Shown: positions 3,456-47,272, numbered from the stretch's first letter. The stretch: DNA of 47,272 nucleotides from Planctomycetota bacterium (GCA_026991575.1 JALXBF010000133.1:1-47272); one strand, 5' to 3'. The notes: generated by a model from the letters alone, not told the origin. A program made the numbers and translations.

Positions 3456-4679
3456 TCACTTGGGCTCGATGGCGAGCGTCATCGTGCTGTTGTCCGCCAC
3501 CGGAAACAGGGGCGCGTGCCGGTTCTGACCGAGGAAGCGTTGCCGCGCCCGCCCGCCGAGATTCCACTGGACCCCGGCCCACACGTTCCAGGTATCCGAC
3601 TCGAACGCGCTGTGACCGCCCACGGCGACGGTCCACGCGTCTGTCACGGGGTAAACCAGCCGCGCGCCGATTGCCGCACCCGACTGACTATTGCTTTCAT
3701 CGGCGTCGCTTTGACCGTCCCGCCAGCCGACCCACAGTTCGCTATCCAGGCCGACGTTCCAAAGGTGACGCCAGAAAATGTTCACCTGATTGGCAGTCTC
3801 CGCACGCGTTGCCGCGTTGATGTCGTCGTCCGAAACCCCGCCACTTCCCCAAACTCCCAGCTCGTTGCGAAAGTCCACCGTGTATGACACCTTGCCCCGC
3901 ACTTGAACGACCTGCACGTCGTAGAAACCGTCGTGCAGGAAGTCGGCAACGGCGCCGACGTTCCAGGCGGCACCCAGCTGCATGTCGCCGCGGTAGAAGA
4001 CACCGGCCGTGACGAAGATCTGCTCCTGATCCTCTGTTACCGATCCCGATGCCCCCGCCTGAACCCCTAAACCGACGTAATCGCTGACCAGAGGCGATGC
4101 CCAGTTAATCCCAAAGCGACCCGCATTGCGGAAGTCGTTCGCCGGCAACTCGAAGCCGTCGTAGTAGGCAAAGGCCCACGTGTTTGCAAACGGCACATAT
4201 TCGATCGGAAATGTCCCCGGCGCGCAGCGGCCGTCGTAACTGATGACCGGGCCGCAAGCCGATACGGCGGGCCGCAGCAGTCCACCGAGCCAGTGGTGCC
4301 ACGGCGGCTCTTCACTGCTGTAGTTCGGTCCAGTGGGGCCTGCAGCGAGCGGCGGACCAGATGGCGGTGGCGGCACAGTGGCCGAATCAGCCGGCGGTGA
4401 CGGCAGCGTCGCCGCGCCCGGTCGATCGGGCGCTTGCCTGGCTGGCCACTCCAGTAGGCCTGGGTCCGGTGCGTCCAAGCTCTGGAAACCGTACTCCGGG
4501 TCCTGGCCACGGATGAGCGTTTCGTCGGAGGGAGCCTCCGGGTACGGGGGCGGCGGCAATGCTTCATCACTGAGACGAATCGTTCGATGTGTCGTGCAGC
4601 CGGGCAGGAAAGCTGCCGATAAGAACGATACGGCGAGGAAGAGCCGAGCAAGCTGCCTGCCGCTGATGCGTCCCTGCAT
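3456..4679 (-). CDS. Planctomycete outer-membrane beta-barrel protein (DUF6666-like), possible lipoprotein
   Basis: Signal peptide ending FLPGC, Pro-rich linker, then alternating beta-strands (NAGRFGINWASPL, GLGVQAG, QIFVTAGVFYR, WNVWAGVQWNLG) and tail PLFPVADNSTM. Confidence 0.65.
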   Translation of the reverse strand: MQGRISGRQLARLFLAVSFLSAAFLPGCTTHRTIRLSDEALPPPPYPEAPSDETLIRGQDPEYGFQSLDAPDPGLLEWPARQAPDRPGAATLPSPPADSATVPPPPSGPPLAAGPTGPNYSSEEPPWHHWLGGLLRPAVSACGPVISYDGRCAPGTFPIEYVPFANTWAFAYYDGFELPANDFRNAGRFGINWASPLVSDYVGLGVQAGASGSVTEDQEQIFVTAGVFYRGDMQLGAAWNVGAVADFLHDGFYDVQVVQVRGKVSYTVDFRNELGVWGSGGVSDDDINAATRAETANQVNIFWRHLWNVGLDSELWVGWRDGQSDADESNSQSGAAIGARLVYPVTDAWTVAVGGHSAFESDTWNVWAGVQWNLGGRARQRFLGQNRHAPLFPVADNSTMTLAIEPK

Positions 4680-4962
4680 AAACGCTGCTCCCTATCAATG
4701 CCCGCTTGCGAGCGTAGTCGCTTGTGGTCAGTGCGATTATGGTCGCGAGCCGGCAAGCGTCAATGCCAATCCGGCTTCAGCTGCGACAGCAAACGGCCTT
4801 CGGCGCGGACCCACGCGGCAGGCTCATGATGTTGGCGATGCGCGCGCCACGCTACGCAGGAGCGCCGGACCATTGACCTGCCCGGAGGAATCCCTGTGGG
4901 AGCGGCACCACGGTCTCGTGCGGCGAACGCGTACGTCAGGCGGCGGCTGCCGGTTGGCGGGC

Positions 4963-5244
4963 TCAGCAGCAGTCTCTCGCACTGCGGGTGTCCTCCTCCC
5001 CTTGCCCGCCGGCCATTGGCGGGAAGATCGACAGCGTCTGGCCTTCGCTAAGCGGCTGGTCCAATTGTGGGCAGTGCTCGCCATCGATCATCACAATGCG
5101 AGCCATCTCCTCGGGGACCTGCAACTGCTTCAGCACGTCGCGCACGGTCGCCCCTTCGGGCAGTTCCAGTGTGGCCTGGCTGCCCGCGGCCCCTTCGGGC
5201 AGATACTTCCGTAGCGAGGCAAACAGCTTCACCTTCACCTGCAC
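4963..5244 (-). CDS. MoaD/ThiS family sulfur carrier with C-terminal extension
   Basis: VKVKLFASLR...LPEGATVRDVL...LSIFPPMAGG followed by QGEEDTRSARDCC; last gene of the AOR operon. Confidence 0.85.
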   Translation of the reverse strand: MQVKVKLFASLRKYLPEGAAGSQATLELPEGATVRDVLKQLQVPEEMARIVMIDGEHCPQLDQPLSEGQTLSIFPPMAGGQGEEDTRSARDCC

Positions 5245-5294
5245 AGCGGGCCTCCTGTTGTTTTGACTGAGTCGCGCGCCTGTGGAAGCGGTCG

Positions 5295-6695
5295 CTAGCT
5301 GTGCCCGAATACTTTCCGGTAGGCCTCCACGAATACCTTGTGGTGGGGGCCCTTATCCGTCTCGACGTCTGGCTCAGCCGGCAGGGGCCGCACACGTGGA
5401 TCGTCCGACGGCAACGGCAGCAACGTCCGCTTGAGCAGTCTTGTTGCCACTCCCAAGGCGACGTAAGGACGGCGCAGGTCCAGCGGATGAGTCTCCTTCA
5501 GGTAGGTCTTCCACTCACCCATGGCGATACCGGTTTGCACGAGCCCTTTGACCATACCGATGTCGGTCAAATTCATGATGTCGCCGGTTGGTCCCATGAG
5601 GATGCCGCCTACCATGCGGTCGCCGTCAAAGACGTACTTTCGATACAGAGGTCGCGCTGGATTCGCGAGCCGCACGATGTCGTCCTCACCATCCCAGCGG
5701 CCGAAGCTGGCGATTTGAAGGCCGCAAACGTCCAGCACGTTCATTGACAGCGACCCGTCGTAGCGGACGTCCTGGCCAGCCATGTTGGCTCCGGCCACGC
5801 GGCCGTGGTCGATTGCCGTGGGTTGGATTGCATGTACCTCCTTGCCTCCCAGCACACTCGGTCCCTGAGCGCAATCGCCCGCGGCGTAAATGAACGGGTA
5901 ATTGGTTTGCAGCCGCTCGTTAACCACAATGCCCTCGTCAACTTCAACGCCGCTGCCACGGACAAAGGCCACGTTGGGCCGAACGCCGGCGGCGATCACG
6001 ACGCAGTCGGCCGGGATCCGATCGCCTGCTGTTAGCTCCACGGCAAGCGCACCGTCATGTTGCAGAATCCGTGCTGCCTGGGTGCCACAGCGTACGTCGA
6101 CGCCGCGTTTTGCTAACCAGTCGGTGGCGAGCCGGGCGGCTTCGGCATCGAGCATGCGCGGCAGGATCTGGTCCATCATCTCGATGACCGTTAGCGAACA
6201 GCCCCGTTTGTACAGGGCGTTGAGCACGATCATGCCCACGAACCCGGCTCCGATAAACACCACTCGCTTGCCTTGGCCGGTGTGCTCGATCAGGCGGCGT
6301 GCATCCTCGATGGTCCAGAGGTTGGTCACGCCAGGCAGATCAAGCCCTTCGATAGGCGGTCGAACGGGCGACGAACCGGTGGCGATCAACAGCGTGTCGA
6401 AGTGGAGCGTCGTGCCGTCGGACAGCGTGACCGTCTTGCCGTCCGGATCGATCCGCTCGGCCCGCACGCCGATGTGCGGCGTCACGCCGAACTTCTGGAA
6501 CACATCGTCACCCCCAGTGTAAACGTGGCTCTCGGGGACATCGCCACAGATGTAGTAGGGCAGCACCATGCGAGCGTATGGGGGTTCGTCGCAGACCAGA
6601 TGGATCTCCGATCCTTCGGGCTCGAACCGCCGGATCGTCTCGATCGCGTGCATGCCGGCAGGCCCGGCTCCCACGATAACATGACGCTTGGCCAT
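5295..6695 (-). CDS. FAD-dependent NAD(P)H oxidoreductase (AorC-like subunit)
   Basis: GAGPAG FAD motif, LLIATGS, IGAGFVG NAD motif, TNYPFIYAAGD; adjacent to the AOR catalytic subunit. Confidence 0.9.
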   Translation of the reverse strand: MAKRHVIVGAGPAGMHAIETIRRFEPEGSEIHLVCDEPPYARMVLPYYICGDVPESHVYTGGDDVFQKFGVTPHIGVRAERIDPDGKTVTLSDGTTLHFDTLLIATGSSPVRPPIEGLDLPGVTNLWTIEDARRLIEHTGQGKRVVFIGAGFVGMIVLNALYKRGCSLTVIEMMDQILPRMLDAEAARLATDWLAKRGVDVRCGTQAARILQHDGALAVELTAGDRIPADCVVIAAGVRPNVAFVRGSGVEVDEGIVVNERLQTNYPFIYAAGDCAQGPSVLGGKEVHAIQPTAIDHGRVAGANMAGQDVRYDGSLSMNVLDVCGLQIASFGRWDGEDDIVRLANPARPLYRKYVFDGDRMVGGILMGPTGDIMNLTDIGMVKGLVQTGIAMGEWKTYLKETHPLDLRRPYVALGVATRLLKRTLLPLPSDDPRVRPLPAEPDVETDKGPHHKVFVEAYRKVFGHS

Positions 6696-6712
6696 GATGC
6701 TGTCCTCTCCCG

Positions 6713-8584
6713 TTAGCCAAAGACTTCTTCCAGATTCAGTTCACTCACCTTCGCGCTGGTTGGCGTGCCGGTTTCGTCCCAGCCGCGTAGCCGGTAGTAC
6801 TCCGGCAGCATCTCGTGCAATCGGTTGACCTGCCCTCTGCTCGGCCCGGCCGGAATCGGCGCGCGCAGCAGGCGGTCCGGCAGGGTGTCATCGGCGCCAG
6901 TGAAGCCGGCGCGCAGCAGCCAGAGCCGTTCCAGGTTGAAGATTCGCTCGCCGGCCCGAATCACTTCCTCCAGCGTGTAGTCCACGCCGGTGGCTGCGGC
7001 GAGCATGGGCACAAGGTCTTCCAGCTCGGCCCCGAACGACACGAACAGGCAGATACCGCTGGCGTCGATGCTGCTGGTTGCGTCTTGAAGCTTTTTCTGC
7101 AACGCTGCCTTGCCGGCCGTGGTGCGAGGATTCAGTTTCTCGGGGACGCCAAGGATTTCAGCCTTCACCGAGTATCCCTTCAGGTGGCAGCCGCCTCGAT
7201 TTGAGGTAGCGTAGCCGAGCCCCATGCCCTGAATGGCGCGAGCGTCGTAGGCGGGGAACTCCATTCCCTTGCTGCCCATAAACAGCTCTGGATGTCCGTA
7301 CCGTTCACACAAGCGTTTAGCTCCCTCGGCAAGCTGGTCGCCGAACCCGCGGCGCAAGGCAGTTGCCTCAGTGAATGCCACCAGTGCATCGGCATCGCCG
7401 AAGCAGAGCGGGCGCCCGGTGACGGAATCGTCCAGGTAGCCGCGCTCGTATAACTCCATGGCCGCCGCCAGTGTCGCGCCGAAGCTGATCGGGTCCATGC
7501 CGTAGTCGTTGCACAGGAAACTGGCCTTGAGCACCGCGTCCATGTCGTCGACGTTCGTATCGGCACCCAGCGCCCAGATGTTCTCGTACTCGGGCCCCTC
7601 CTCGGCAGCCCGCCAGTTCCGGGGCGACGTCAACACGGCGTGACGAACCCGGCCATCCTCTGAGACGCGGGTCACGCGGCCGCAGGCAATCGTGCAGGCA
7701 AAGCATGCTTTGTTCCGCAACGTGTAGCGTGCCTTCAGGGTCTCGCCGCTGATGCGCTCCGCGTCACTGCCGGTCTCGTCGGGAGCCATGTGCGCGAATT
7801 GCCAGTTCTTTACCGGCAGCGCGCCGGATTCATTGATCACGTGCACCAGCACAGCTGTCCCGAAACCAGGCAGCCCCTCGCCGGTCACCGGGCTGGCACG
7901 CAGCTTCTGGCGGAAACGCCACTGGGCGGCAAGGAACTCGGCCGGCCGAGCAATGGGCACCCCCCGTGTGCCCCAAACCGCAATCGCCTTCAGCCGCTTT
8001 GCGCCCATGACCGCACCGACCCCGTTGCGTCCAGCGGCGCGGTGGAGGTCGTTCATAATGGCGGCGAAACGAACAAGGTTCTCGCCCGCCTGGCCAATGC
8101 TTGCGATCCGGACCCCTGGCAGGCCCACCTCCTCCCGGATTCGCTCCTCAGTTTCCCAGACCCCCTTGCCCCAGAGATGCTCCGCGGATCGGACTTGGAC
8201 CTGGTCGTCGACGATCAGCAGGTACACGGGCCGCTGGGCCTGTCCCTCGATGATTAGCAGATCGTAGCCGGCGAACTTCAGGGCCGGTCCCCAGTGGCCG
8301 CCGGAATTGGACGTTGTGATCGTGCCGTTGAGCGGGGCCTTGGTGATCACCATGTAGCGGGCGCCGCAGGAGGCGCTGGTCCCCGTCAGCGGACCCGTGG
8401 CGAAGATAAGTTTGTTGTGCGGGCTGAATGGATCGATTGTCGGGTCAACTTCGGCACAGAAGTATCGGGCGCCCAAGCCCCGACCGCCGATGAACGCGCG
8501 GGCCCAATCCATGCGGAGCGGTTCCACCGTGCAGGAACCGTCTGAGAGGTTGACGCGCAGTAGCCGCCCGGCCCAACCACCCAT
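6713..8584 (-). CDS. aor: Tungsten aldehyde:ferredoxin oxidoreductase family catalytic subunit (AorB-like)
   Basis: IGGRGLG, SNSGGHWGPALKFAGYD, AAGRNGVGAVMGAKRLKAI, CFACTIAC, EGPEYE, CNDYGMDPIS, YATSNRGGCH, DASGICLF. Confidence 0.95.
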   Translation of the reverse strand: MGGWAGRLLRVNLSDGSCTVEPLRMDWARAFIGGRGLGARYFCAEVDPTIDPFSPHNKLIFATGPLTGTSASCGARYMVITKAPLNGTITTSNSGGHWGPALKFAGYDLLIIEGQAQRPVYLLIVDDQVQVRSAEHLWGKGVWETEERIREEVGLPGVRIASIGQAGENLVRFAAIMNDLHRAAGRNGVGAVMGAKRLKAIAVWGTRGVPIARPAEFLAAQWRFRQKLRASPVTGEGLPGFGTAVLVHVINESGALPVKNWQFAHMAPDETGSDAERISGETLKARYTLRNKACFACTIACGRVTRVSEDGRVRHAVLTSPRNWRAAEEGPEYENIWALGADTNVDDMDAVLKASFLCNDYGMDPISFGATLAAAMELYERGYLDDSVTGRPLCFGDADALVAFTEATALRRGFGDQLAEGAKRLCERYGHPELFMGSKGMEFPAYDARAIQGMGLGYATSNRGGCHLKGYSVKAEILGVPEKLNPRTTAGKAALQKKLQDATSSIDASGICLFVSFGAELEDLVPMLAAATGVDYTLEEVIRAGERIFNLERLWLLRAGFTGADDTLPDRLLRAPIPAGPSRGQVNRLHEMLPEYYRLRGWDETGTPTSAKVSELNLEEVFG

Positions 8585-8605
8585 GGCGATCCGCTCCTGA
8601 GCTTC

Positions 8606-9091
8606 TCAGGCTACGCCTTCGAGCATCTCCCGGAAACGCGCCGAGACTTGCTCGGCTAGCCGGCCGGTCCACTCTTCGCCGTTGGACGTTTCACCCACCG
8701 TGATGCACTCCGTGGGGCACGCCAGTGCACAGGCCGGCTCGCCACCGCACAGGTCACACTTGGTCGCTTTGTGGTCAGGCCGCAAGAACGCCGTCCCAAA
8801 CGGACATGCGATCACGCACAACGCACAGCCGACACAGACCTGCTCCAGAACAACCTTTGCTCCGGTAACAGGGTTGATCGCAATCGCATTCACCGGGCAG
8901 ACCGTCATGCACCACGCTTCGTTGCACTGGAAGCAGGTGTACGGCGTGTAGGCGGCTTGCTCGTCAAAGATGTGTACCTTGATCAGGGACGCAGCTGGAT
9001 TGAACCGCCCCGTTTGCACCCAGGAGCATGCCAGCTCGCACTGCATACAACCAGTACATTTATCCGGGTCGATTCGCAACGCTGTAGCCAT
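8606..9091 (-). CDS. 4Fe-4S polyferredoxin subunit (AorA/DmsB-like)
   Basis: ATG 9091 after AGGAGG; four Cys groups CTGCMQCELAC, CFQC..WCMTVCP, CVGCALCVIACP, KCDLC..PACALACP. Confidence 0.92.
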   Translation of the reverse strand: MATALRIDPDKCTGCMQCELACSWVQTGRFNPAASLIKVHIFDEQAAYTPYTCFQCNEAWCMTVCPVNAIAINPVTGAKVVLEQVCVGCALCVIACPFGTAFLRPDHKATKCDLCGGEPACALACPTECITVGETSNGEEWTGRLAEQVSARFREMLEGVA

Positions 9092-40205: not shown

Positions 40206-41453
40206 GTGATCCCCACCCACAGAGCCATGTCACAGCCCCCTGGAGCCACAAATTGCCGTTCGATCGACCTCCGCAGTGGTCCGGTGGACTGGGAGATCCG
40301 CGTTGCCACTGAGCGGCTCGTGGCAGAGTGTCGACCGCGACCCTCCCCGCCGATCGCCGACCTGGCTGCTGCCGTCACGCGGGCAATCGAGCAGCCCCTG
40401 GACTTTCCGCCGCTGGCTCAGGCGATCTACGAAGGCGACCGGGTCGTGATCGCCGTGGATGGTTCCCCATGGGCGTACCGAGCTGTCTTGCTGCCGCTGA
40501 TCGAGCTTGCCCGCAGACGCGGCGCCCGAGCCGATGCGATCACCGTGGTCGCTCCATGGCGGGCACGCGAAGTGGCACACCGGTTGGGCTCCTTCCCCGC
40601 CCGGGTACTGTTCCATAACCCGGATGACCAGCAACAGCTCAGCTACCTGGCGAGCACCGAAGAGGGAGAACGCATCTACTTGAACCGCACGGTCGTGGAC
40701 GCTGATGTGCTGATTCTCGTCGGGACCGTGCGGTACGATCCCGTGCTCGGCTACCGGGGCACGGCCAGCGCGGTGTTTCCGGCGCTGTCCACTCGCGACT
40801 CGTTCCGCCGGTTTGTCTCTTCCTTTACCGGTCGGCGCGTTGGCCACCATCCGAAGTGGGCACGCAACTACGTCGACCAGGTCGGTTGGTTGCTGGGAGC
40901 CCAGTTCAGCGTTCAGCTTGTCCAAGGCCCCGGTGGCTCCATCGTTGCCGTGTTGGCAGGGAATGCGGCCAAAGTGCAGGAAGCGGCACAGCAAAAGCTC
41001 GACGAACTGCTCTCGTTCCGCGTACCGCGCCAGGCCGATCTCGTGCTCGCAACGCTCGGTCGCGGCGGCCGCCAGAGTGCTGCCGAGCTAGCCCGTGCCG
41101 CATTCACGGCCCAGCGCGTGGTTCGCAAAGGTGGCCGCATCGCGTTGTTGTCGGCAGTTGAACAGATCGACGGGCCAACCATGGAACGGGTCCGTAAGGC
41201 GGACGAAATCGACGAAGTACTCGGTTTCTTGCGAAACGAAACGCCTCCGGACGCCGTCACCGGCTTCATGCACGCGACCGCTTGCCAACGGGCCCGGGTG
41301 TTTCTGCACAGCGGGCTGGCAGACGAGCTAGTCGAGGAGTTGTTCATGTTCCCGCTACACACGCAGCAACAGCTTCAGCGGCTCGTGGACCAGGCCGCCA
41401 GCGTGATCGTACTGCACGAAGCCAACTGCTTGCAGGTAACGGTCCAGGACTGA
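40206..41453 (+). CDS. Lactate racemase (LarA/DUF2088) domain protein, probably non-canonical
   Basis: AIEQPLDFPPL, HNPDD, YLASTEEGERIYLNR...ADVLI, VRKGGRIALL; start may be 40227. Confidence 0.75.
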   Translation: MIPTHRAMSQPPGATNCRSIDLRSGPVDWEIRVATERLVAECRPRPSPPIADLAAAVTRAIEQPLDFPPLAQAIYEGDRVVIAVDGSPWAYRAVLLPLIELARRRGARADAITVVAPWRAREVAHRLGSFPARVLFHNPDDQQQLSYLASTEEGERIYLNRTVVDADVLILVGTVRYDPVLGYRGTASAVFPALSTRDSFRRFVSSFTGRRVGHHPKWARNYVDQVGWLLGAQFSVQLVQGPGGSIVAVLAGNAAKVQEAAQQKLDELLSFRVPRQADLVLATLGRGGRQSAAELARAAFTAQRVVRKGGRIALLSAVEQIDGPTMERVRKADEIDEVLGFLRNETPPDAVTGFMHATACQRARVFLHSGLADELVEELFMFPLHTQQQLQRLVDQAASVIVLHEANCLQVTVQD

Positions 41454-41471
41454 TGAGGTGGAGGCTTCGCG

Positions 41472-42368
41472 GTGGCCGGTTGTGAGTTTCCCGAGCGCGC
41501 GTGGGCCGATGTCACAGCCCGACGGCAGCTCGTCCACCTGCGTGGTCCTGATGCCCAGCGCTTCCTGCACAACTTCTGCACAAACGACATCAAAGCACTT
41601 GCTCCGGGCCGGGGCTGTGAAGCATTTCTGACCACGGACCAGGGGCGAACGTTGGCCTTCGCATTCGTTATGTGCACGGCCGATGGCATCCTTCTCGATG
41701 TAGGCCGCACGCCGGCTAGTGATGTCATCGAACATTTGCACCGCTACTGGATCACTGAGAAGATTGAACTGATCGATGCCACCCGTCGGTTCCGGCACTT
41801 TGTGTGGCTGGGCTGCGAGCTGCCCGAGCGTGTGACTGGCCACGCTGTGGCCTACGTGGAGGGCGGCTTCCCAGGAACCGACCCCTGCGGCCAGCTGCTC
41901 GTGCCGGTCGACGCCGGTGCGGAGGTGATGCGTGCGCTCACCGAGCACTTCGGCCCCCCGCTTGACCTCGACCGGCTCGAACGGCTTCGGATCGCTTCGT
42001 TCTGGCCCGAATCAGGGATCGAAGTCAACACGGACCACTTCCCGCAGGAGTTCCGCCGGGATGACCGCGCAATCAGCTTCACAAAAGGCTGCTATCTGGG
42101 ACAGGAGACCGTGGCGCGAATCCACACCTACGGCCACGTTAACCGTTACCTCGTGCTGCTGTCGCTCAGCGATCCACCCGCGTCGGGTGCCGGTCCCATC
42201 GAGCTGACCTCTGACCAGCAGGCCGTGGGCCACATCACATCCATCGCGAGCGATGAGGACGGGCCACAACTCGCATTGGGGTTTGTGCGCCGCGGGTTTG
42301 AGCAAGTGGGCACGCTTCTGCGGTGGCGCAGCGGCCCGGCCCAGGGTGAGGCTGAGGTCATCCGATGA
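41472..42368 (+). CDS. ygfZ: YgfZ/GcvT folate-binding protein
   Basis: GPDAQRFLHNFCTND and the YgfZ signature SFTKGCYLGQETVAR. Confidence 0.88.
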   Translation: MAGCEFPERAWADVTARRQLVHLRGPDAQRFLHNFCTNDIKALAPGRGCEAFLTTDQGRTLAFAFVMCTADGILLDVGRTPASDVIEHLHRYWITEKIELIDATRRFRHFVWLGCELPERVTGHAVAYVEGGFPGTDPCGQLLVPVDAGAEVMRALTEHFGPPLDLDRLERLRIASFWPESGIEVNTDHFPQEFRRDDRAISFTKGCYLGQETVARIHTYGHVNRYLVLLSLSDPPASGAGPIELTSDQQAVGHITSIASDEDGPQLALGFVRRGFEQVGTLLRWRSGPAQGEAEVIR

Positions 42369-42601
42369 GCCCGTCGCCCGGGCTGGTCACTACGGCTCGT
42401 CGCGCCGCCCATTCGATTGCCCGCGACCTCAACCAGGAAACACCCGCCAAAGCACGCAACACCGCTTGCGCTTCGCCTGGTTAGTCCTCCCGCGGTATTG
42501 TGGGGCGCCACACGGCGGCACGTGCCGGATGGGGTACCATAGGGGGGGTGGCGTGACACCGGCAACCACGATGAAGCAGGACCAAACGGAGGATGACGTT
42601 G

Positions 42602-43369
42602 ATGCACCGCCGCGACTTCCTGTGGCTCAGCAGCCTCGTCGCAGCCGGGCTGCCATTCGGGCTGCATGCCGACGATGCTCGTCCCGCTCAGTTCATCGAG
42701 TGGTGGCGGTTCCGGATGCTTCCGGGCCGGAGTCGAAGTCGGCTCACACGCTTCGTGGCCGACGCGCTCGTTCCGGCACTGAACCGCCAGGGGATCCAGC
42801 CAGTGGGCGTCTTCCGCGCGCGCTACGGTGAGGACAGTCTGACGCTACGCTTGCTGCTGCCGCACCCGAACCTGGCCTCCGTGGCAACGGTCACCGACCG
42901 ACTGGTTGAGGACGCCGAGTTCCGTGACGCAGGCAAGGACGTGCTAGCAGCCCCCATGTCGCAACTGGCCTACGTGCGATTGGAGCGGGAGTTGATGGTG
43001 GCGTTCCGAGACTTTCCCCAAGTAGTGGTGCCGAAGAAACGGGGAGTGTTTGAGCTGCGCAAGTACGAGAGCCATTCGCTCGTGGCAGGCAAGAAGAAGA
43101 TCGAGATGTTCAATGAAGGCAAGGAGATCCCGATCTTTCTGAAGACCGGCTTCGAGCCCGTGTTCTTTGCCGAAACGGTCGTTGGGCCGCAGTTGCCGAA
43201 CCTGCAGTACATGGTGGCTTTCGAGGACCTGGCGGCGCGCGATGCGGCCTGGCAGCGGTTCATCCGTCATCCGGACTGGATCAAACTCAGCGCCGACCCT
43301 CAGTATAAGGACACGGTCTCAAACATCCACGACACGATCCTCTTGCCGCTGCCCTGCTCACAGATCTGA
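42602..43369 (+). CDS. NIPSNAP family protein with Tat signal
   Basis: HRRDFL Tat motif; FELRKYES, KKIEMFN, LPNLQYM, WQRFIRHPDW, CSQI. Confidence 0.88.
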   Translation: MHRRDFLWLSSLVAAGLPFGLHADDARPAQFIEWWRFRMLPGRSRSRLTRFVADALVPALNRQGIQPVGVFRARYGEDSLTLRLLLPHPNLASVATVTDRLVEDAEFRDAGKDVLAAPMSQLAYVRLERELMVAFRDFPQVVVPKKRGVFELRKYESHSLVAGKKKIEMFNEGKEIPIFLKTGFEPVFFAETVVGPQLPNLQYMVAFEDLAARDAAWQRFIRHPDWIKLSADPQYKDTVSNIHDTILLPLPCSQI

Positions 43370-43389
43370 CGTCGTCGCGCACGACCTAC

Positions 43390-43419
43390 GCGCGGGTCTC
43401 GCCACCGCGGGACCCGCGC
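43390..43419. terminator. GC-rich hairpin, possible terminator
   Basis: GCGCGGGTCTCGC-CACC-GCGGGACCCGCGC, 13-bp stem with one G-U pair, 20 nt after the NIPSNAP stop; no U-tract. Confidence 0.4.
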
Positions 43420-43949
43420 TGCAGTGCGTGCTCCCCGGGTTGCCTCCGTCACTTTCTTCCGGGAATACGGCGCGTTGCGGCCCACTGCACGGGTGCCGAC
43501 TGTAGGGGCTCGTTCCAGAACGACCCGCAGCACCGGGCAGGTCGTTCAGCCGCCGCCCACGCATTCCTATCCCAGGAGGCATTCATTGCAGACAATCCCG
43601 TTGCCATGTGCCGGCTCAACCACGCGGTACGGGCACGCACGGACGCTGATCCGGTCCCCCGGCCGCCGTTCACCCAGCGGTAGCCACAGCGTTCCGACAC
43701 GCCTCTCCCACAGTGCGCTCCAGCCACGTTCCGACTACGCGCACCTTCCCCACAGAAGGAACCGCACTTCGGCACGCTCTACTTCTCGGTCTCGGCATCG
43801 CCAGTCCCGGGACAGGTCTAGCGGCTGCTCTGCAAGGATCACCGTTCGGTGTTGCCCCTGGCCGGAAGGATCGTTCAGTCAGCATAGTTCTGCCTGCGGT
43901 GTAAACAGCCGCACTTCAGCGGGCGCCGTGCGGCCTGGTCGTAACTGAC

Positions 43950-44362
43950 CAGCCGACCGTCCTGCTCAGCGCAGAGAACAGTGCCGCGGTGCGGGCTGTA
44001 GGCCAGTCCCATCGCAAGGCCGCCTGACTTGGCCGTCACCGCGGAGCACACCAAAAGCATATCCGTCAACCGTGGCCCGACCCGTGTCCACTCGAACAGC
44101 ACGCATCCCTTTTTAATCCCTGCAACCTCCTCCGTCCCAAACGGCTAACAGCATCGACCCTCACGGACTGCTCCGGCGGCGATCACGAAGCACAGCGTTT
44201 CACCAGCATCTGAACGCGCCGCTGCCTTGCGTGCTCTCAGCGTGGAATCGGGCATGCGGTGCGGTGTCTGGAGCGGGCAGAGTGTCGACTGGTTTCGCGC
44301 TCTGGATAGTCGCCGCCGATGTGCACAAGGGTGGTGTTGGGCACTGCTGCTGCAGACGTCAT
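43950..44362 (-). pseudogene. Eroded Cas7/Csm3-like RAMP gene remnant
   Basis: ATG 44362 overlaps the upstream gene's stop (ATGA); 41-aa ORF MTSAAAVPNTTLVHIGGDYPERET...CPIP resembles TPLHIGG...PYIP; later frames give thumb-like and G-loop-like strings. Confidence 0.5.
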
Positions 44363-46833
44363 CGGCTCGAAACGCCTTCGCCGTCGTCGTCGCCGGCTTC
44401 CATCTCACAGCGTTGCGCCCGTGCGCAGGCATCGATCAGGGCTTTGACCGCGTAAGCCCATAGCTCCCCTCGCAGACACGCTTCCGGGTCGTCAGTCAAC
44501 CGCGGCCACTTGTCGCACTTGCCGCCCAGCACCTGCCACACGGTCGCGGGCTCCTGGAAGAGGGCCATGCATCGCTTCAGTGCGTCGCATTCGGCTGCGT
44601 GCCAGGTTCGTCGTCTACGAGGGGTCTCAGTCACGCGCTTCAGCCATCCGCGCACCAGGGCGGCGTCGTCGAAGGTGCTCACCCGGTGAACCACTGCGCG
44701 AAACGCCAGGATCTCGCTCATCGCCGGCACACTTCGCCGGCCAACAATCTGCCAGCCAAGAACGCGGCGGCGCTCGGCCGGGTCCGCAGCCAAAGCGCGA
44801 GCAGCACGGTCGACGAGCGAGCGCCACGCCTCCCGCTCGATTAGACGGGCAAAGCGGTAGCCGTCGCTGTCCTTACTCAGCCGAGCCCGTTGTTGGGTAC
44901 TGTCGGCTCCGGACGGAAGCCGCTCCGTCAATTGCCAGCTCCGGCCCGACCGCGTCAGGATCGGATCGTTGAACCGAACGTCCCCGAAGCCTTCGGCAGT
45001 TCGCTCCCCTAGCCCCATGATCGTCAACTGCGCCAGGCGCTGCCGATCGACCTTGCCCGCAGTCACCTCAAACATGGCGCACGAACCCGCGCGCAGCGCC
45101 ACCAGAGACGGCCGGGGCAACCGCCAGCCGGTATGCCACGTCTCGTGACGACGCACCCGCAGCCGACTCTTCACCGCGCGAAGCTCCACGCCCAGTGCCT
45201 GCTCCAGCGCCCGCTGCAGCCCGCCCAGTGTTGCGTCGTAGCCGAGTCGGTCGTTGCGAACGAGCAGGTCCGAGACGAGCCAGACAGCGAGTCGCTTTCG
45301 TCGGCAGCCTGGGACGGTCGGCAAGCCGTCAACCGGTGGATCTGCCGATACGTACGCCGCCCCATGGTCCTGCTGCTTTGACCGACCCAGCCAGATTGGG
45401 CCGCTGAACGCCTGCCACCAGTCCGTTCGTGCGCGCTGCAATCGATCCGCAAGTTCGCCGGGCAGAACCAGCTCGCTCCGCAGCACGGTCCGCGAGCCGC
45501 CGGCACCGGGTGCGATTGCTTCGAAAAAGCCGACGGTCGTTGGGCCGATGGCTTGTTCGTCGTCATCCACACCGAGTGAAGCTGCCGTGCAGATCGTCAT
45601 GGGCACGCGGCGGTACTCTAGCCGGCGTTTATCGACGTAGGCCACGTAACCTTGTTCGATCGGTTCAGTGAGGATGTCGCTGGCCGAGTCCGCCACCTCC
45701 CGGTCGTCGACGAACGCATTGCGTAGGCGGCACGGCAGGTTCGCGCAGCCCGCCCTCTCGTTGCACGCTTCAATCGCCAGCGGAGCCGGTAGTCCGCGTT
45801 GGCCGGCGACGTCCACAGTGGCGTTCAGAACGCGGATCCGGCCCGCGGCAACTTCCGGGAACAGCTCCCATGGTGCAATGCCCAGCGAGCGCAGCACGCG
45901 CGTGACGTGTGGCAAGAGGCAGTAGCCGGGGACATAGTCCAGCGATCTGTCAATCCCCCCTGCCTTGGCGAAGCAGACTGCGACCGTGCTCTCGAGTGTG
46001 ACCGTCAGCGGAACTCGGACGGGCGTATTCCGGTCGCGCCGCTGCAGCACAGGTACAAGCAAAGGCTGCTTGGGTCCACAAGCTGCCTGTTCCCAGTCGG
46101 GAGGTGCTGTTCTGAGAAGCTCGCACACCCGGTCGATGGACATCAGCTCAGCGTTGTGACCTGAACCGTCCTCGGCAAAGACGGTGACGTGGCAGATCCC
46201 AGCATGCTGACCTGACGAGCGGTCGGAACCGAGCCGGGTCAGCAGCCAACTGCCCGCGACGAGGAGTGCCACCGCATGGTCGCGGATGGTGGCGGGCACG
46301 CGCAGCGTGGCACTGGCCCAGAGCTCGCTGCCTGCTCGCGCGTACTCGAGGCTCCCTCGGCAGCCGCGGTCCAAGCTGCCTGGTCCTGATGGCTGCCCAT
46401 CGGCAGTCCATTTGATGAACGTCGTCGCTCTCCGAGCGATCTCGTCATGTGTCAGGACTGCCCGCAACGCTACAGGGTAGCGCGCTGCTCGGACCTCCAG
46501 CACTGACTGGCCTGACAGGACGATGTGCCCGTCTGGCAAGCACCGAGACGTCCCGTTGCTTCGGCAGTGGAAAAGGCACGCGGCCAGTCGCGACCACGGG
46601 CCATCGTGGCGACCGCGGTCCAGTGCGCGGGCGACCAGCATGCACGCTTCGCGCCACAGGGAACGGAGAAGCTTGCCGGGCACGTAAGGCAGACCGTCTG
46701 GGTCTCGAGCAATGACGCCGTCGTGCTGCGGAGAGCGGTTGCTGGGCGCCGCGGTGCGCCACTCCGAGCGCATCACCAGGCGGATCGCCATCGAAACGGT
46801 CACAAGCTGGTTGCTGCCGTTCGAACCGCTCAC
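44359..46833 (-). CDS. csx10: Type III-D RAMP fusion protein Cas7-Cas5-Cas11 (Csx10-like), divergent
   Basis: Cas7 RDPDGLPYVPGK..WREAC; Cas5 SLDYVPG, NAT..GLPAP, EAIAPG, LGRSKQQDHG, WLVSDLLVR, WRLPRPSL..AGSC, GLGERTAEGFGDVRFNDP; helical Cas11-like tail ending LWAYAVKALIDAC. Confidence 0.85.
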   Translation of the reverse strand: MSGSNGSNQLVTVSMAIRLVMRSEWRTAAPSNRSPQHDGVIARDPDGLPYVPGKLLRSLWREACMLVARALDRGRHDGPWSRLAACLFHCRSNGTSRCLPDGHIVLSGQSVLEVRAARYPVALRAVLTHDEIARRATTFIKWTADGQPSGPGSLDRGCRGSLEYARAGSELWASATLRVPATIRDHAVALLVAGSWLLTRLGSDRSSGQHAGICHVTVFAEDGSGHNAELMSIDRVCELLRTAPPDWEQAACGPKQPLLVPVLQRRDRNTPVRVPLTVTLESTVAVCFAKAGGIDRSLDYVPGYCLLPHVTRVLRSLGIAPWELFPEVAAGRIRVLNATVDVAGQRGLPAPLAIEACNERAGCANLPCRLRNAFVDDREVADSASDILTEPIEQGYVAYVDKRRLEYRRVPMTICTAASLGVDDDEQAIGPTTVGFFEAIAPGAGGSRTVLRSELVLPGELADRLQRARTDWWQAFSGPIWLGRSKQQDHGAAYVSADPPVDGLPTVPGCRRKRLAVWLVSDLLVRNDRLGYDATLGGLQRALEQALGVELRAVKSRLRVRRHETWHTGWRLPRPSLVALRAGSCAMFEVTAGKVDRQRLAQLTIMGLGERTAEGFGDVRFNDPILTRSGRSWQLTERLPSGADSTQQRARLSKDSDGYRFARLIEREAWRSLVDRAARALAADPAERRRVLGWQIVGRRSVPAMSEILAFRAVVHRVSTFDDAALVRGWLKRVTETPRRRRTWHAAECDALKRCMALFQEPATVWQVLGGKCDKWPRLTDDPEACLRGELWAYAVKALIDACARAQRCEMEAGDDDGEGVSSR

Positions 46834-47070
46834 CCCACTGCCCCCTGTGCTCGACCCTCATCTTGCCGGCCGCTCTGCCGGATCGCTCGGCCCGCCGACA
46901 CGACCGCGGCCAGTTCCATGACATCCAGCAGGTGCGTCACCCGCGGGCGCGGCTGCCCAGCCACGCGCGCTCCCGAACATATAACGCTGACTTAGTAGGG
47001 CACGCACCAGACGATAACGCACATTGGCGGCTCTGCGCACCAGCGGCGGCGTGTTGCCGCGTTCCACTCT
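46830..47070 (-). pseudogene. Probable frameshifted C-terminal remnant of cas10
   Basis: The frame whose TGA (46830-46832) overlaps the csx10 GTG reads VTHLLDVMELA; a neighbouring frame just upstream reads RRAANVRYRLV; in-frame TAA at 46992-46994. Confidence 0.45.
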
Positions 47071-47272
47071 GCCTGACCTCTCGCGGGCAACTTCCGGAAA
47101 CTCCCATCACCCTATGCTAGAACCATAGCTGCGGGTAGTTGCTGGCAGAATCGTGGCACGGGCGTGCCTTTGCGGGGCGGTGTGGCGGTGACAGCAAGCG
47201 TCTGGAAAGCGGATCGCTTGAATGGTCGGGCTGGGAAAGCCAGGCAGCTGTCACCGTCCAGTGCCATCAGGG

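Follow-up and report, generated by a model that had tools for sequence, protein, structure and literature searches.

The window analysed here is the entire contig C133 (47,272 base pairs, bp) of a Planctomycetota bacterium whose genome, G000, is assembled in 191 contigs (4.96 Mb, 97.8% complete). It carries an 824-codon open reading frame (ORF) with a GTG start at 44359–46833 on the minus strand, and ORF calling confirms what an earlier reading of this DNA (the sequence-only reading) had described as a long, open RAMP gene. Its product matches the Cas7-Cas5-Cas11 fusion subunit of type III-Dv CRISPR effectors, and the gene lies between a csx19 pseudogene and a trace of cas10, which bears out the earlier proposal of an intact gene in a destroyed III-D(v) operon. 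The locus is composed of the following features, where C152 is the contig into which C133 continues.

44359–46833, minus strand: intact cas7-cas5-cas11 fusion gene, 824 codons with a GTG start, identified by ORF call, PADLOC and PDB match
43552–44106, minus strand: csx19 pseudogene, full length, 185 codons in one frame from the ATG at 44106
46893–46949, minus strand: putative cas10 3' trace, a C-terminal motif of 18–19 residues inside a 44-codon ORF at 46830–46964
44107–44358, no strand: spacer of 252 bp from the fusion gene stop to the csx19 ATG, holding a 41-codon ORF at 44237–44362; cas7-2x is missing
43370–43551, no strand: stretch of 182 bp from the csx19 pseudogene to a convergent NIPSNAP gene; cas7-insertion is missing
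46834–47272 and on to about C152:686, no strand: upstream stretch of ~1 kb without long open frames, the expected place of the remaining cas10
42593–43369, plus strand: NIPSNAP-family housekeeping gene (Pfam NIPSNAP, E 8e-18), which bounds the remnant locus and lies outside the CRISPR locus

Using the 824-residue protein as query, a single match was found among the sequences of solved structures, PDB 8s9t_A ('Cas7-Cas5-Cas11'), with an expectation value (E) of 1.5e-81 and with query residues 16–817 aligned to residues 5–781 of the chain. In the comparison with Csx10 and RAMP profiles that the sequence-only reading had proposed, PADLOC returned Cas5_IIId (E 2.8e-17, residues 479–767) and Cas7_IIId (E 1.7e-6, residues 15–68), while the NCBIfam Csx10 model TIGR02674, which describes unfused Csx10, gave E 1.4e-10 over residues 542–624 with 40.9 bits against a cut-off of 177.3, and Pfam RAMPs gave E 0.044, under its cut-off. 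The family is large, with 403 cluster representatives at E ≤1e-30 among 1.84 billion proteins, mostly 750–850 residues long, and the GC content of the gene by codon position (0.706/0.540/0.746) resembles that of the intact cas genes on another contig of this genome, C27. Judged by these matches, the product of the frame is the complete fusion subunit, Cas7-Cas5-Cas11, of a type III-Dv effector, with approximate domain limits of 1–235 for Cas7, 236–630 for Cas5/Csx10 and 631–824 for Cas11. According to PMC11026444, III-Dv operons run in the order cas10, cas7-cas5-cas11, cas7-2x, csx19, cas7-insertion, and the complex contains no repeated subunits.

The gene is joined to both of its small neighbours by four-base overlaps, as previously described: GTGA links the end of the upstream 44-codon ORF (46830–46964, minus strand) to the fusion gene start, and ATGA links the fusion gene stop to the start of the downstream 41-codon ORF (44237–44362, minus strand). 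A purine-rich AGGGGG run at 46840–46845 (minus strand), 7 nucleotides 5' of the GTG start and within the cas10 trace, is a possible candidate for a ribosome-binding site retained with the fusion gene. A promoter scan of 43300–47272 returned no sigma-70-like sites, which carries little weight for this kind of organism, and Rfam gave nothing at E ≤0.1 in 42000–47272.

The recognisable remnant downstream is csx19 and not, as had previously been proposed, a cas7 gene. A search by tblastn with the Csx19 protein of C27 aligned to 43555–44013 in a single frame (E 1e-14, 30% identity over 172 columns), with stops inside the alignment, a local Csx19 profile built from four sequences detected the flank at E 1.9e-20, and the PADLOC Csx19 profile PDLC01430 matched the read-through, with X at the stops, at E 2.7e-9; a word-indexed protein search with the same read-through gave no match. 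Four nonsense codons interrupt the frame, at codons 47 (TGA), 76 (TGA), 124 (TAG) and 180 (TAG), one of which aligns with a conserved Trp, and GC content at third codon positions (GC3) is 0.627 in the pseudogene against 0.695 in the intact C27 csx19. The sequence-only reading had both flanks broken by stops and frameshifts; the stops are present, together with deletions, while no frameshift could be demonstrated, with csx19 homology lying in one frame over all 185 codons. Decay of csx19 by nonsense codons only is itself unexpected, as some frameshifting indels would have been anticipated alongside four stops.

Either side of the csx19 pseudogene there is little room for further genes. In intact loci cas7-2x is ~1.7 kb and cas7-insertion ~2.4 kb, and since only 252 bp and 182 bp flank the pseudogene here, both genes must be missing and not merely broken. 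The 252-bp spacer at 44107–44358 gave no family match in three frames, and neither the whole Cas7-2x profile nor its N-terminal part detected the 41-codon ORF. The 'TLVHIGG' motif of this ORF had been entertained as a Cas7 remnant and was dropped, as it fell outside the top eight hits of the Cas7-2x N-terminal profile. Likewise, 43370–43551 gave no family match in three frames, and the Cas7-insertion profile found nothing there. The locus thus has no Cas7 match in its flanks to supply the backbone genes, and its csx19 carries the four stops.

On the upstream side, the remnant was expected at the position of cas10, and here the proposal gained some support. When the C-terminal 75 residues of seven Cas10 proteins from III-Dv loci were made into a profile and run against six frames of the 89 kb formed by C133 and C152, the best hit was the 44-codon ORF (E 0.012, the next being 0.84), with a whole-Cas10 profile giving E 0.054 for the same ORF. 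The match corresponds to the motif that directly precedes the Cas10 stop in relatives, and we regard it as modest, position-consistent evidence that this ORF carries a cas10 3' trace. The remainder of the upstream stretch gave no matches to Cas10, Cas7 or Csx19; PADLOC detected no Cas10 in any minus frame of 46830–47272 or of C152:1–1200, whole-length Cas10, Cas7-2x and Cas7-insertion profiles gave nothing significant in the flanks or in C152:1–8000, and a tblastn comparison of the joined 4.4 kb upstream with the Cas10 of L032, the nearest one at hand, yielded noise only. In place of the intact cas10 that a III-D/III-Dv system requires beside its RAMP gene, there is a trace of 18–19 residues. 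Past this stretch C152 encodes a weak alpha/beta-hydrolase ORF on the opposite strand followed by a radical SAM gene. The neighbours of the remnant locus are LarA-like, GcvT-like, NIPSNAP, hydrolase and radical SAM genes.

Such a locus could also be produced by faulty assembly, whereby the flanking genes would really be intact, and their stops and absences would be errors or the product of a chimeric join. This is a metagenome-type assembly in 191 contigs and the stretch ends 439 bp upstream of the fusion gene, both of which favour this explanation. However, a 23.4-kb contig produced by a different assembler from run X1, at a depth of 41, covers 42500–47272 with zero differences and extends past the end of the stretch, and 43411–43720 and parts of the fusion gene recur without change in small contigs from another sample of that study. 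X1 is perhaps the source of G000, and as the same reads underlie both X1 assemblies, the 23.4-kb contig is a check of the assembly and not of a fully independent organism. In the assembly graph C133 has a single neighbour at either end, and the last 127 bases of C133 are exactly the first 127 of C152. Furthermore, ORFs of at least 200 codons cover 91.7% of the joined 89 kb, and therefore the assembly is not full of broken genes. The two largest gaps between these ORFs, 995 and 974 bp, are the two flanks of the fusion gene (the upstream gap being the second largest, at 46858–47831 in path coordinates), and as the gaps coincide exactly with its flanks, the picture of a long intact gene between two decayed stretches holds. 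The sequence-only reading had listed assembly errors in the flanks among the results that would refute it; with the sequence supported by both assemblers and by another sample, we consider an artefact very improbable.

We compared the fusion gene with its dead neighbour, using the csx19 pseudogene as a measure of decay. Single substitutions that create a stop make up 3.3–3.5% of those possible in the ORF and 3.5–3.9% in csx19, and the stop-creating mutational target of the ORF is 3.8–4.3 times that of csx19. Given four stops in csx19, this ratio leads to an expectation of 15–17 stops in the ORF had it decayed alongside, and the probability of finding none is 4e-8 to 2e-7 (~1e-7); a conservative calculation that replaces the count of four with its lower 95% Poisson bound gives 0.01–0.016. 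GC3 of the ORF is 0.746, within the range of the intact C27 cas genes (0.695–0.755), compared with the 0.627 of the pseudogene. These values uphold the earlier claim that the frame stayed open beyond the decay of its neighbours and indicate that the neutral phase through which its csx19 passed was not one that the frame went through as well. Selection may have acted on the frame from then on, or else the loss of csx19 came long before that of the other operon genes. We infer that the fusion gene was probably held open by purifying selection while its csx19 gained four nonsense codons.

The second of these options is that of an undecayed relic, which lost its function with the operon, is under no selection now and has by chance acquired no stop or frameshift yet, with csx19 having been inactivated much earlier. 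The entire surrounding operon is dead, and the high GC content that keeps stop-creating substitutions at 3.3–3.5% in this frame would slow the appearance of stops, both of which are in keeping with a relic. The 15–17 stops expected from a shared neutral period and the uneroded GC3 of the frame speak against it, and overall we see a relic as possible but rather unlikely. The Synechocystis complex cannot be assembled without Csx19, according to PMC11026444, so a local complex should be unable to form at the C133 locus. Under either option the fusion gene was kept for long with no working csx19 of its own, which points to partners encoded in trans or to a role outside the canonical complex.

The history of the protein itself bears on both possibilities. 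The 824-residue protein (P0001) has only one close relative, a sister of 823 residues from another organism (P0002), to which it is 45–46% identical. The cluster of P0002 has three members, encoded on contigs of 3.3–5.9 kb, namely P0002, the full-length P0156, which differs at three residues, and P0155, which corresponds to residues 136–823, is called from the internal Met136 and therefore lacks most of the Cas7 domain. The three differences between P0002 and P0156, at residues 91, 97 and 101, all fall in one 11-residue stretch of the Cas7 domain. In a FastTree phylogeny of 30 of 59 rows (those of P0001–P0030 that passed a 700–900 residue filter, plus the C27 copy of the fusion protein, C27_801), P0001 and P0002 were sisters with a support of 100, a stem of 0.55 and tips of 0.76 and 0.84 (median tip 0.8), nested as (P0006,(P0001,P0002)) beside a pair formed by P0007 and the C27 copy.

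P0001 and P0002 both have degenerate versions, not alike in the two, of four motifs that are present in the 16 other sequences shown and in P0006: the Cas7 motifs SDWHVGSG-GRPG, KPGV-ID and GGKRRRG, and the Cas5 motif TH..QRPT..GGVYSYEA. A set of 57 canonical members has 120 columns with conservation of at least 90%, and of these 81 are kept in P0001 and 82 in P0002, compared with 117 each in P0006 and the C27 copy, and the columns kept by P0001 number 29 of 53 in Cas7, 40 of 53 in Cas5 and 12 of 14 in Cas11. By HMMER alignment to 8s9t_A, in what is a degenerate region, D26 is kept as D38, R678 as R712, R706 as R740 and R769 as R805, while the equivalent of R773 is C809 and that of D140 is Gly, with an Asp two residues before. 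In the Synechocystis subunit D26 is described as the site-3 catalytic Asp, and R678, R706, R769 and R773 as arginines of the Cas11 domain (PMC11026444). The alignments thus indicate that the P0001/P0002 clade has specifically lost the surroundings of the Cas7 catalytic site, with most of its Cas5 and Cas11 residues kept.

Loss of four motifs, particularly the glycine-rich ones of Cas7, that are conserved both in the 16 sequences shown and in the 57-sequence canonical set speaks for a relic. However, of 137 columns invariant in eight canonical members, P0001 keeps 93 and P0002 92, with 34 losses common to both, 10 found only in P0001 and 11 only in P0002, and because the losses are mostly common to the two proteins they predate the decay of the C133 locus. 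Likewise, P0001 shows no excess of private losses or of branch length over P0002, which is itself intact in two full-length cluster members, and this too argues against a relic.

These shared losses raise another explanation, in which the clade has left canonical interference altogether and the protein works without Cas10 or a Cas7 backbone, for example as a regulator that binds CRISPR RNA (crRNA) or repeat RNA through its Cas5 and Cas11 parts. Consistent with this, the well-supported two-member clade shares the loss of the Cas7 and Cas5-thumb motifs and has kept other parts, and identity between P0001 and P0002 is highest in Cas5 (0.63 over 276–350 and 0.61 over 541–630) and lowest in the Cas7 domain (0.33–0.44), the reverse of the trend in a canonical pair; the P0155 call, from which most of the Cas7 domain is absent, also fits. 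On the other hand, the cas10 and csx19 remnants show that the gene still belonged to an operon later than the origin of the clade, or in this genome at the least, and Cas11-domain arginines that, in the Synechocystis complex (PMC11026444), act with the Cas7-2x active sites have been kept. No second orphan copy is known, and the 401 genomes of the same class that were searched hold no member of the clade besides that in G000. An exapted stand-alone protein is in our view improbable.

Comparison with related genomes shows how far this locus departs from the usual arrangement. The fusion gene is present in 18 of the 401 class genomes, and loci from 11 other genomes of the class were examined in two sets (5 + 9, three shared). 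The cas10 gene lies directly upstream of the fusion gene in all 11, with a four-base cas10/fusion overlap, by coordinates, in two of five, and cas7-2x lies directly downstream in 10, the eleventh running off its contig; the C133 locus was the only orphan among the loci compared. Single-protein scans of metagenome and genome collections returned no related loci, and alignment-based scans returned only distant Micropruina-type loci (27–29% identity) and one Joint Genome Institute (JGI) contig, which is that of the canonical outgroup P0006 and has an intact cas10 upstream. A comparison of 40206–43369 and C152:700–4000 with contigs C402 and C64 of the closest relative genome, G001, showed that in G001 the hydrolase, LarA-like and GcvT-like genes are adjacent and the NIPSNAP orthologue is on a separate contig. 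G000 has its GcvT-like gene parted from the hydrolase by NIPSNAP and the cas remnant, and its radical SAM gene has the opposite orientation to that of G001. The cas remnant thus sits at a synteny break relative to G001, which makes large recent deletions plausible and in this respect favours a relic. A separate observation from G001 is that the III-Dv operon on its contig C132 has tandem Cas7-insertion paralogues, at 3789–6203 and 6458–8755 (minus strand), of 804 and 765 residues and 44% and 54% identical to the C27 protein.

The sequence-only reading had also stated that the stretch contains neither an array nor any other intact cas gene, and had proposed a search of the rest of the genome. 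The first statement was confirmed, with no tandem array in the stretch, on C152 or near the locus, and no further RAMP, Cas1, Cas6 or Cas10 match on C133. A genome-wide RAMP family search and tblastn, followed by PADLOC, then found three intact type III loci on other contigs.

C27: complete III-Dv operon, with Cas10 (552 residues), Cas7-Cas5-Cas11 (801 residues), Cas7-2x (602 residues), Csx19 (223 residues) and Cas7-insertion (804 residues)
C32: unfused III-D1-like set
C183: III-B locus, with Cmr2, Cmr3, Cmr4 and a Cmr6-Cmr1 fusion of 749 residues

There are in addition four arrays of 7, 8, 15–16 and 20 repeats, all of one 37-nucleotide repeat family, on C47, C96, C182 and C187, together with three cas1 and two cas6 genes, and none of these genes or arrays is on C133 or C152. 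One cas1 match (G000:C67:1839–2741, minus strand) lies within an open frame of 618 codons and may thus belong to a fusion protein of Cas1. The gene is therefore solo at its locus, as described, but not in its genome, where it has III-Dv, III-D1-like and III-B company and a III-Dv paralogue that is 35% identical. This C27 paralogue aligns with the 824-residue protein over its full length at 35–37% identity (35% over 838 alignment columns). Its closest relative is a protein of another organism (tips 0.11 and 0.13), and this, with the nesting of the tree, shows that the two fusion copies of G000 do not stem from a recent duplication. The resident III-Dv operon is complete without the 824-residue protein, a further point in favour of a relic.

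With these systems in the same cell, we favour the reading that the orphan is kept by selection and serves the resident III-Dv complex in trans, as a subunit of altered form, to which we give a probability of roughly one half. The ancestral operon would have contained cas10, the fusion gene, cas7-2x, csx19 and cas7-insertion, with the fusion gene as sole survivor after deletion at the present synteny break took most of cas10, cas7-2x and cas7-insertion and point mutation hit csx19. During the decay of csx19 the fusion gene could not have relied on its own operon, and the 824-residue protein, if made, would take the single Cas5/Cas7.1/Cas11 slot of the C27 III-Dv complex, drawing Cas10, Cas7-2x, Csx19 and Cas7-insertion from the C27 operon and crRNAs from the single repeat family. 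Suitable partners are present, as the genome holds the intact C27 operon, the four arrays with one repeat family, and cas6. Because the Cas7-domain motifs are degenerate while the C-terminal half of Cas5 and three of the four Cas11 arginines are kept, such complexes would be altered at the Cas10-proximal cleavage site (site 3), and the outcome may be a variant effector, or a partly defective and dampening one. Among the roles put forward by the sequence-only reading, it is this version, of a subunit or decoy acting in trans, that appears to fit the findings best.

Complex prediction of residues 236–640 with the C27 Cas10 gave a score of 0.54, with 0.00 as the best of three controls, and lends weak support to this reading. 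The mark used is reached by 116 of 157 solved complexes and by two of 215 mismatched pairs, and scores of at most 0.60 at the mark are found in only 18 of the 157 solved complexes and in both passing mismatches. Contacts agreed to at least 82% between runs, with a predicted local distance difference test (pLDDT) value of at least 75 for the partner; the prediction may none-the-less echo a like complex that has already been solved.

Several points weigh against retention as a subunit in trans. Nothing in the cell needs complementing, because the C27 operon has its own intact fusion subunit of 801 residues that keeps 117 of the 120 conserved columns, and at 35% identity to this paralogue the 824-residue protein may have lost the fit of its interfaces. 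Support from the complex prediction is weak and could stem from no more than likeness to 8s9t. The argument from the openness of the frame assumes that csx19 and the fusion gene became dispensable simultaneously, and if csx19 was lost first and the deletions are recent, there may have been too little time for decay; the loss of the four family motifs could likewise be read as relaxed selection. The reads contain no variant letters, so that a within-population ratio of non-synonymous to synonymous substitution (dN/dS) is not obtainable, and at the 35–46% protein identity that separates the paralogues synonymous sites are saturated.

A more specific form of retention in trans, which we put forward tentatively and hold to be unlikely as it stands, is that the degenerate Cas7-Cas5-Cas11 acts as an endogenous 'faulty' or alternative subunit that competes for the single Cas5 slot and so retunes or dampens the resident effector. 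Dampening would come from loss of the Cas10-proximal cleavage site and altered Cas10 switching, making the protein a self-encoded counterpart of the Cas-derived anti-CRISPRs, and with its sister P0002 it would form a small group of modulators of this kind.

Orphan cas genes and CRISPR loci in decay are frequent and usually dismissed. Here, the csx19 pseudogene provides an internal clock which suggests that a 2.5-kb subunit gene was held open while its operon died, and the cell provides a complete paralogous complex in which a subunit of this kind has exactly one place. If active, the protein would show, from a chromosome, that type III systems can exchange subunits or modulate one another dominantly, and would be a natural variant of the III-Dv programmable RNase without one of its three cleavage sites; if a relic, the locus would still be a clean example of III-Dv operon decay by deletion plus nonsense codons. 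A literature search found no description of an orphan Cas7-Cas5-Cas11, with subscription journals and supplements outside its coverage.

Among known systems, the closest described structure is the III-Dv subunit of Synechocystis sp. PCC 6803 (chain A of 8s9t, 8s9u, 8s9v and 8s9x; PMC11026444), with which the 824-residue protein is colinear throughout and shares the same three-domain order, the plasmid-borne Synechocystis gene being 27% identical by tblastn. In contrast to that subunit, the protein has degenerate forms of the Cas7 motifs around the first strand, of KPGV-ID, of the GGKRRRG loop and of TH..QRPT..GGVY in Cas5, and the equivalent of R773 is Cys, and unlike the Synechocystis locus, no working cas10, cas7-2x, csx19 or cas7-insertion lies alongside and no array lies nearby. 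The C27 paralogue belongs to the same family and the same larger clade, but differs in keeping nearly all of the conserved columns of which 81 of 120 are kept here.

Fusion of RAMP domains in one polypeptide is likewise a property of the type III-E effector Cas7-11 (gRAMP), and III-Dv is described as an intermediate towards III-E (PMC11026444). The protein studied here differs from Cas7-11 in having a single Cas7 domain plus Cas5 and Cas11, its best PADLOC matches are Cas5_IIId and Cas7_IIId and not gRAMP, and alone it should be unable to form a backbone of crRNA length.

The proposed role in trans has its nearest parallel in AcrIB3, a Cas5 homologue which its description (bioRxiv 10.1101/2023.06.24.545427) reports to be 38% identical to the host Cas5 and proposes to be a faulty subunit within Cascade. 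As with AcrIB3, the 824-residue protein is a diverged homologue (35–37%) of a Cas5-containing subunit, is encoded outside a working CRISPR-Cas locus and belongs to a clade of its own, and the cognate type of complex that it would enter is present in the same cell. Unlike AcrIB3, it is carried by no phage, plasmid or anti-defence island and has housekeeping genes as neighbours, and its inhibitory effect is putative; no relatives were found in IMG/VR or phage records, and its plasmid matches are genes of bona fide III-Dv operons. Because it is flanked by remnants of its own operon, the gene appears to have reached its present state by decay in situ and not by capture.

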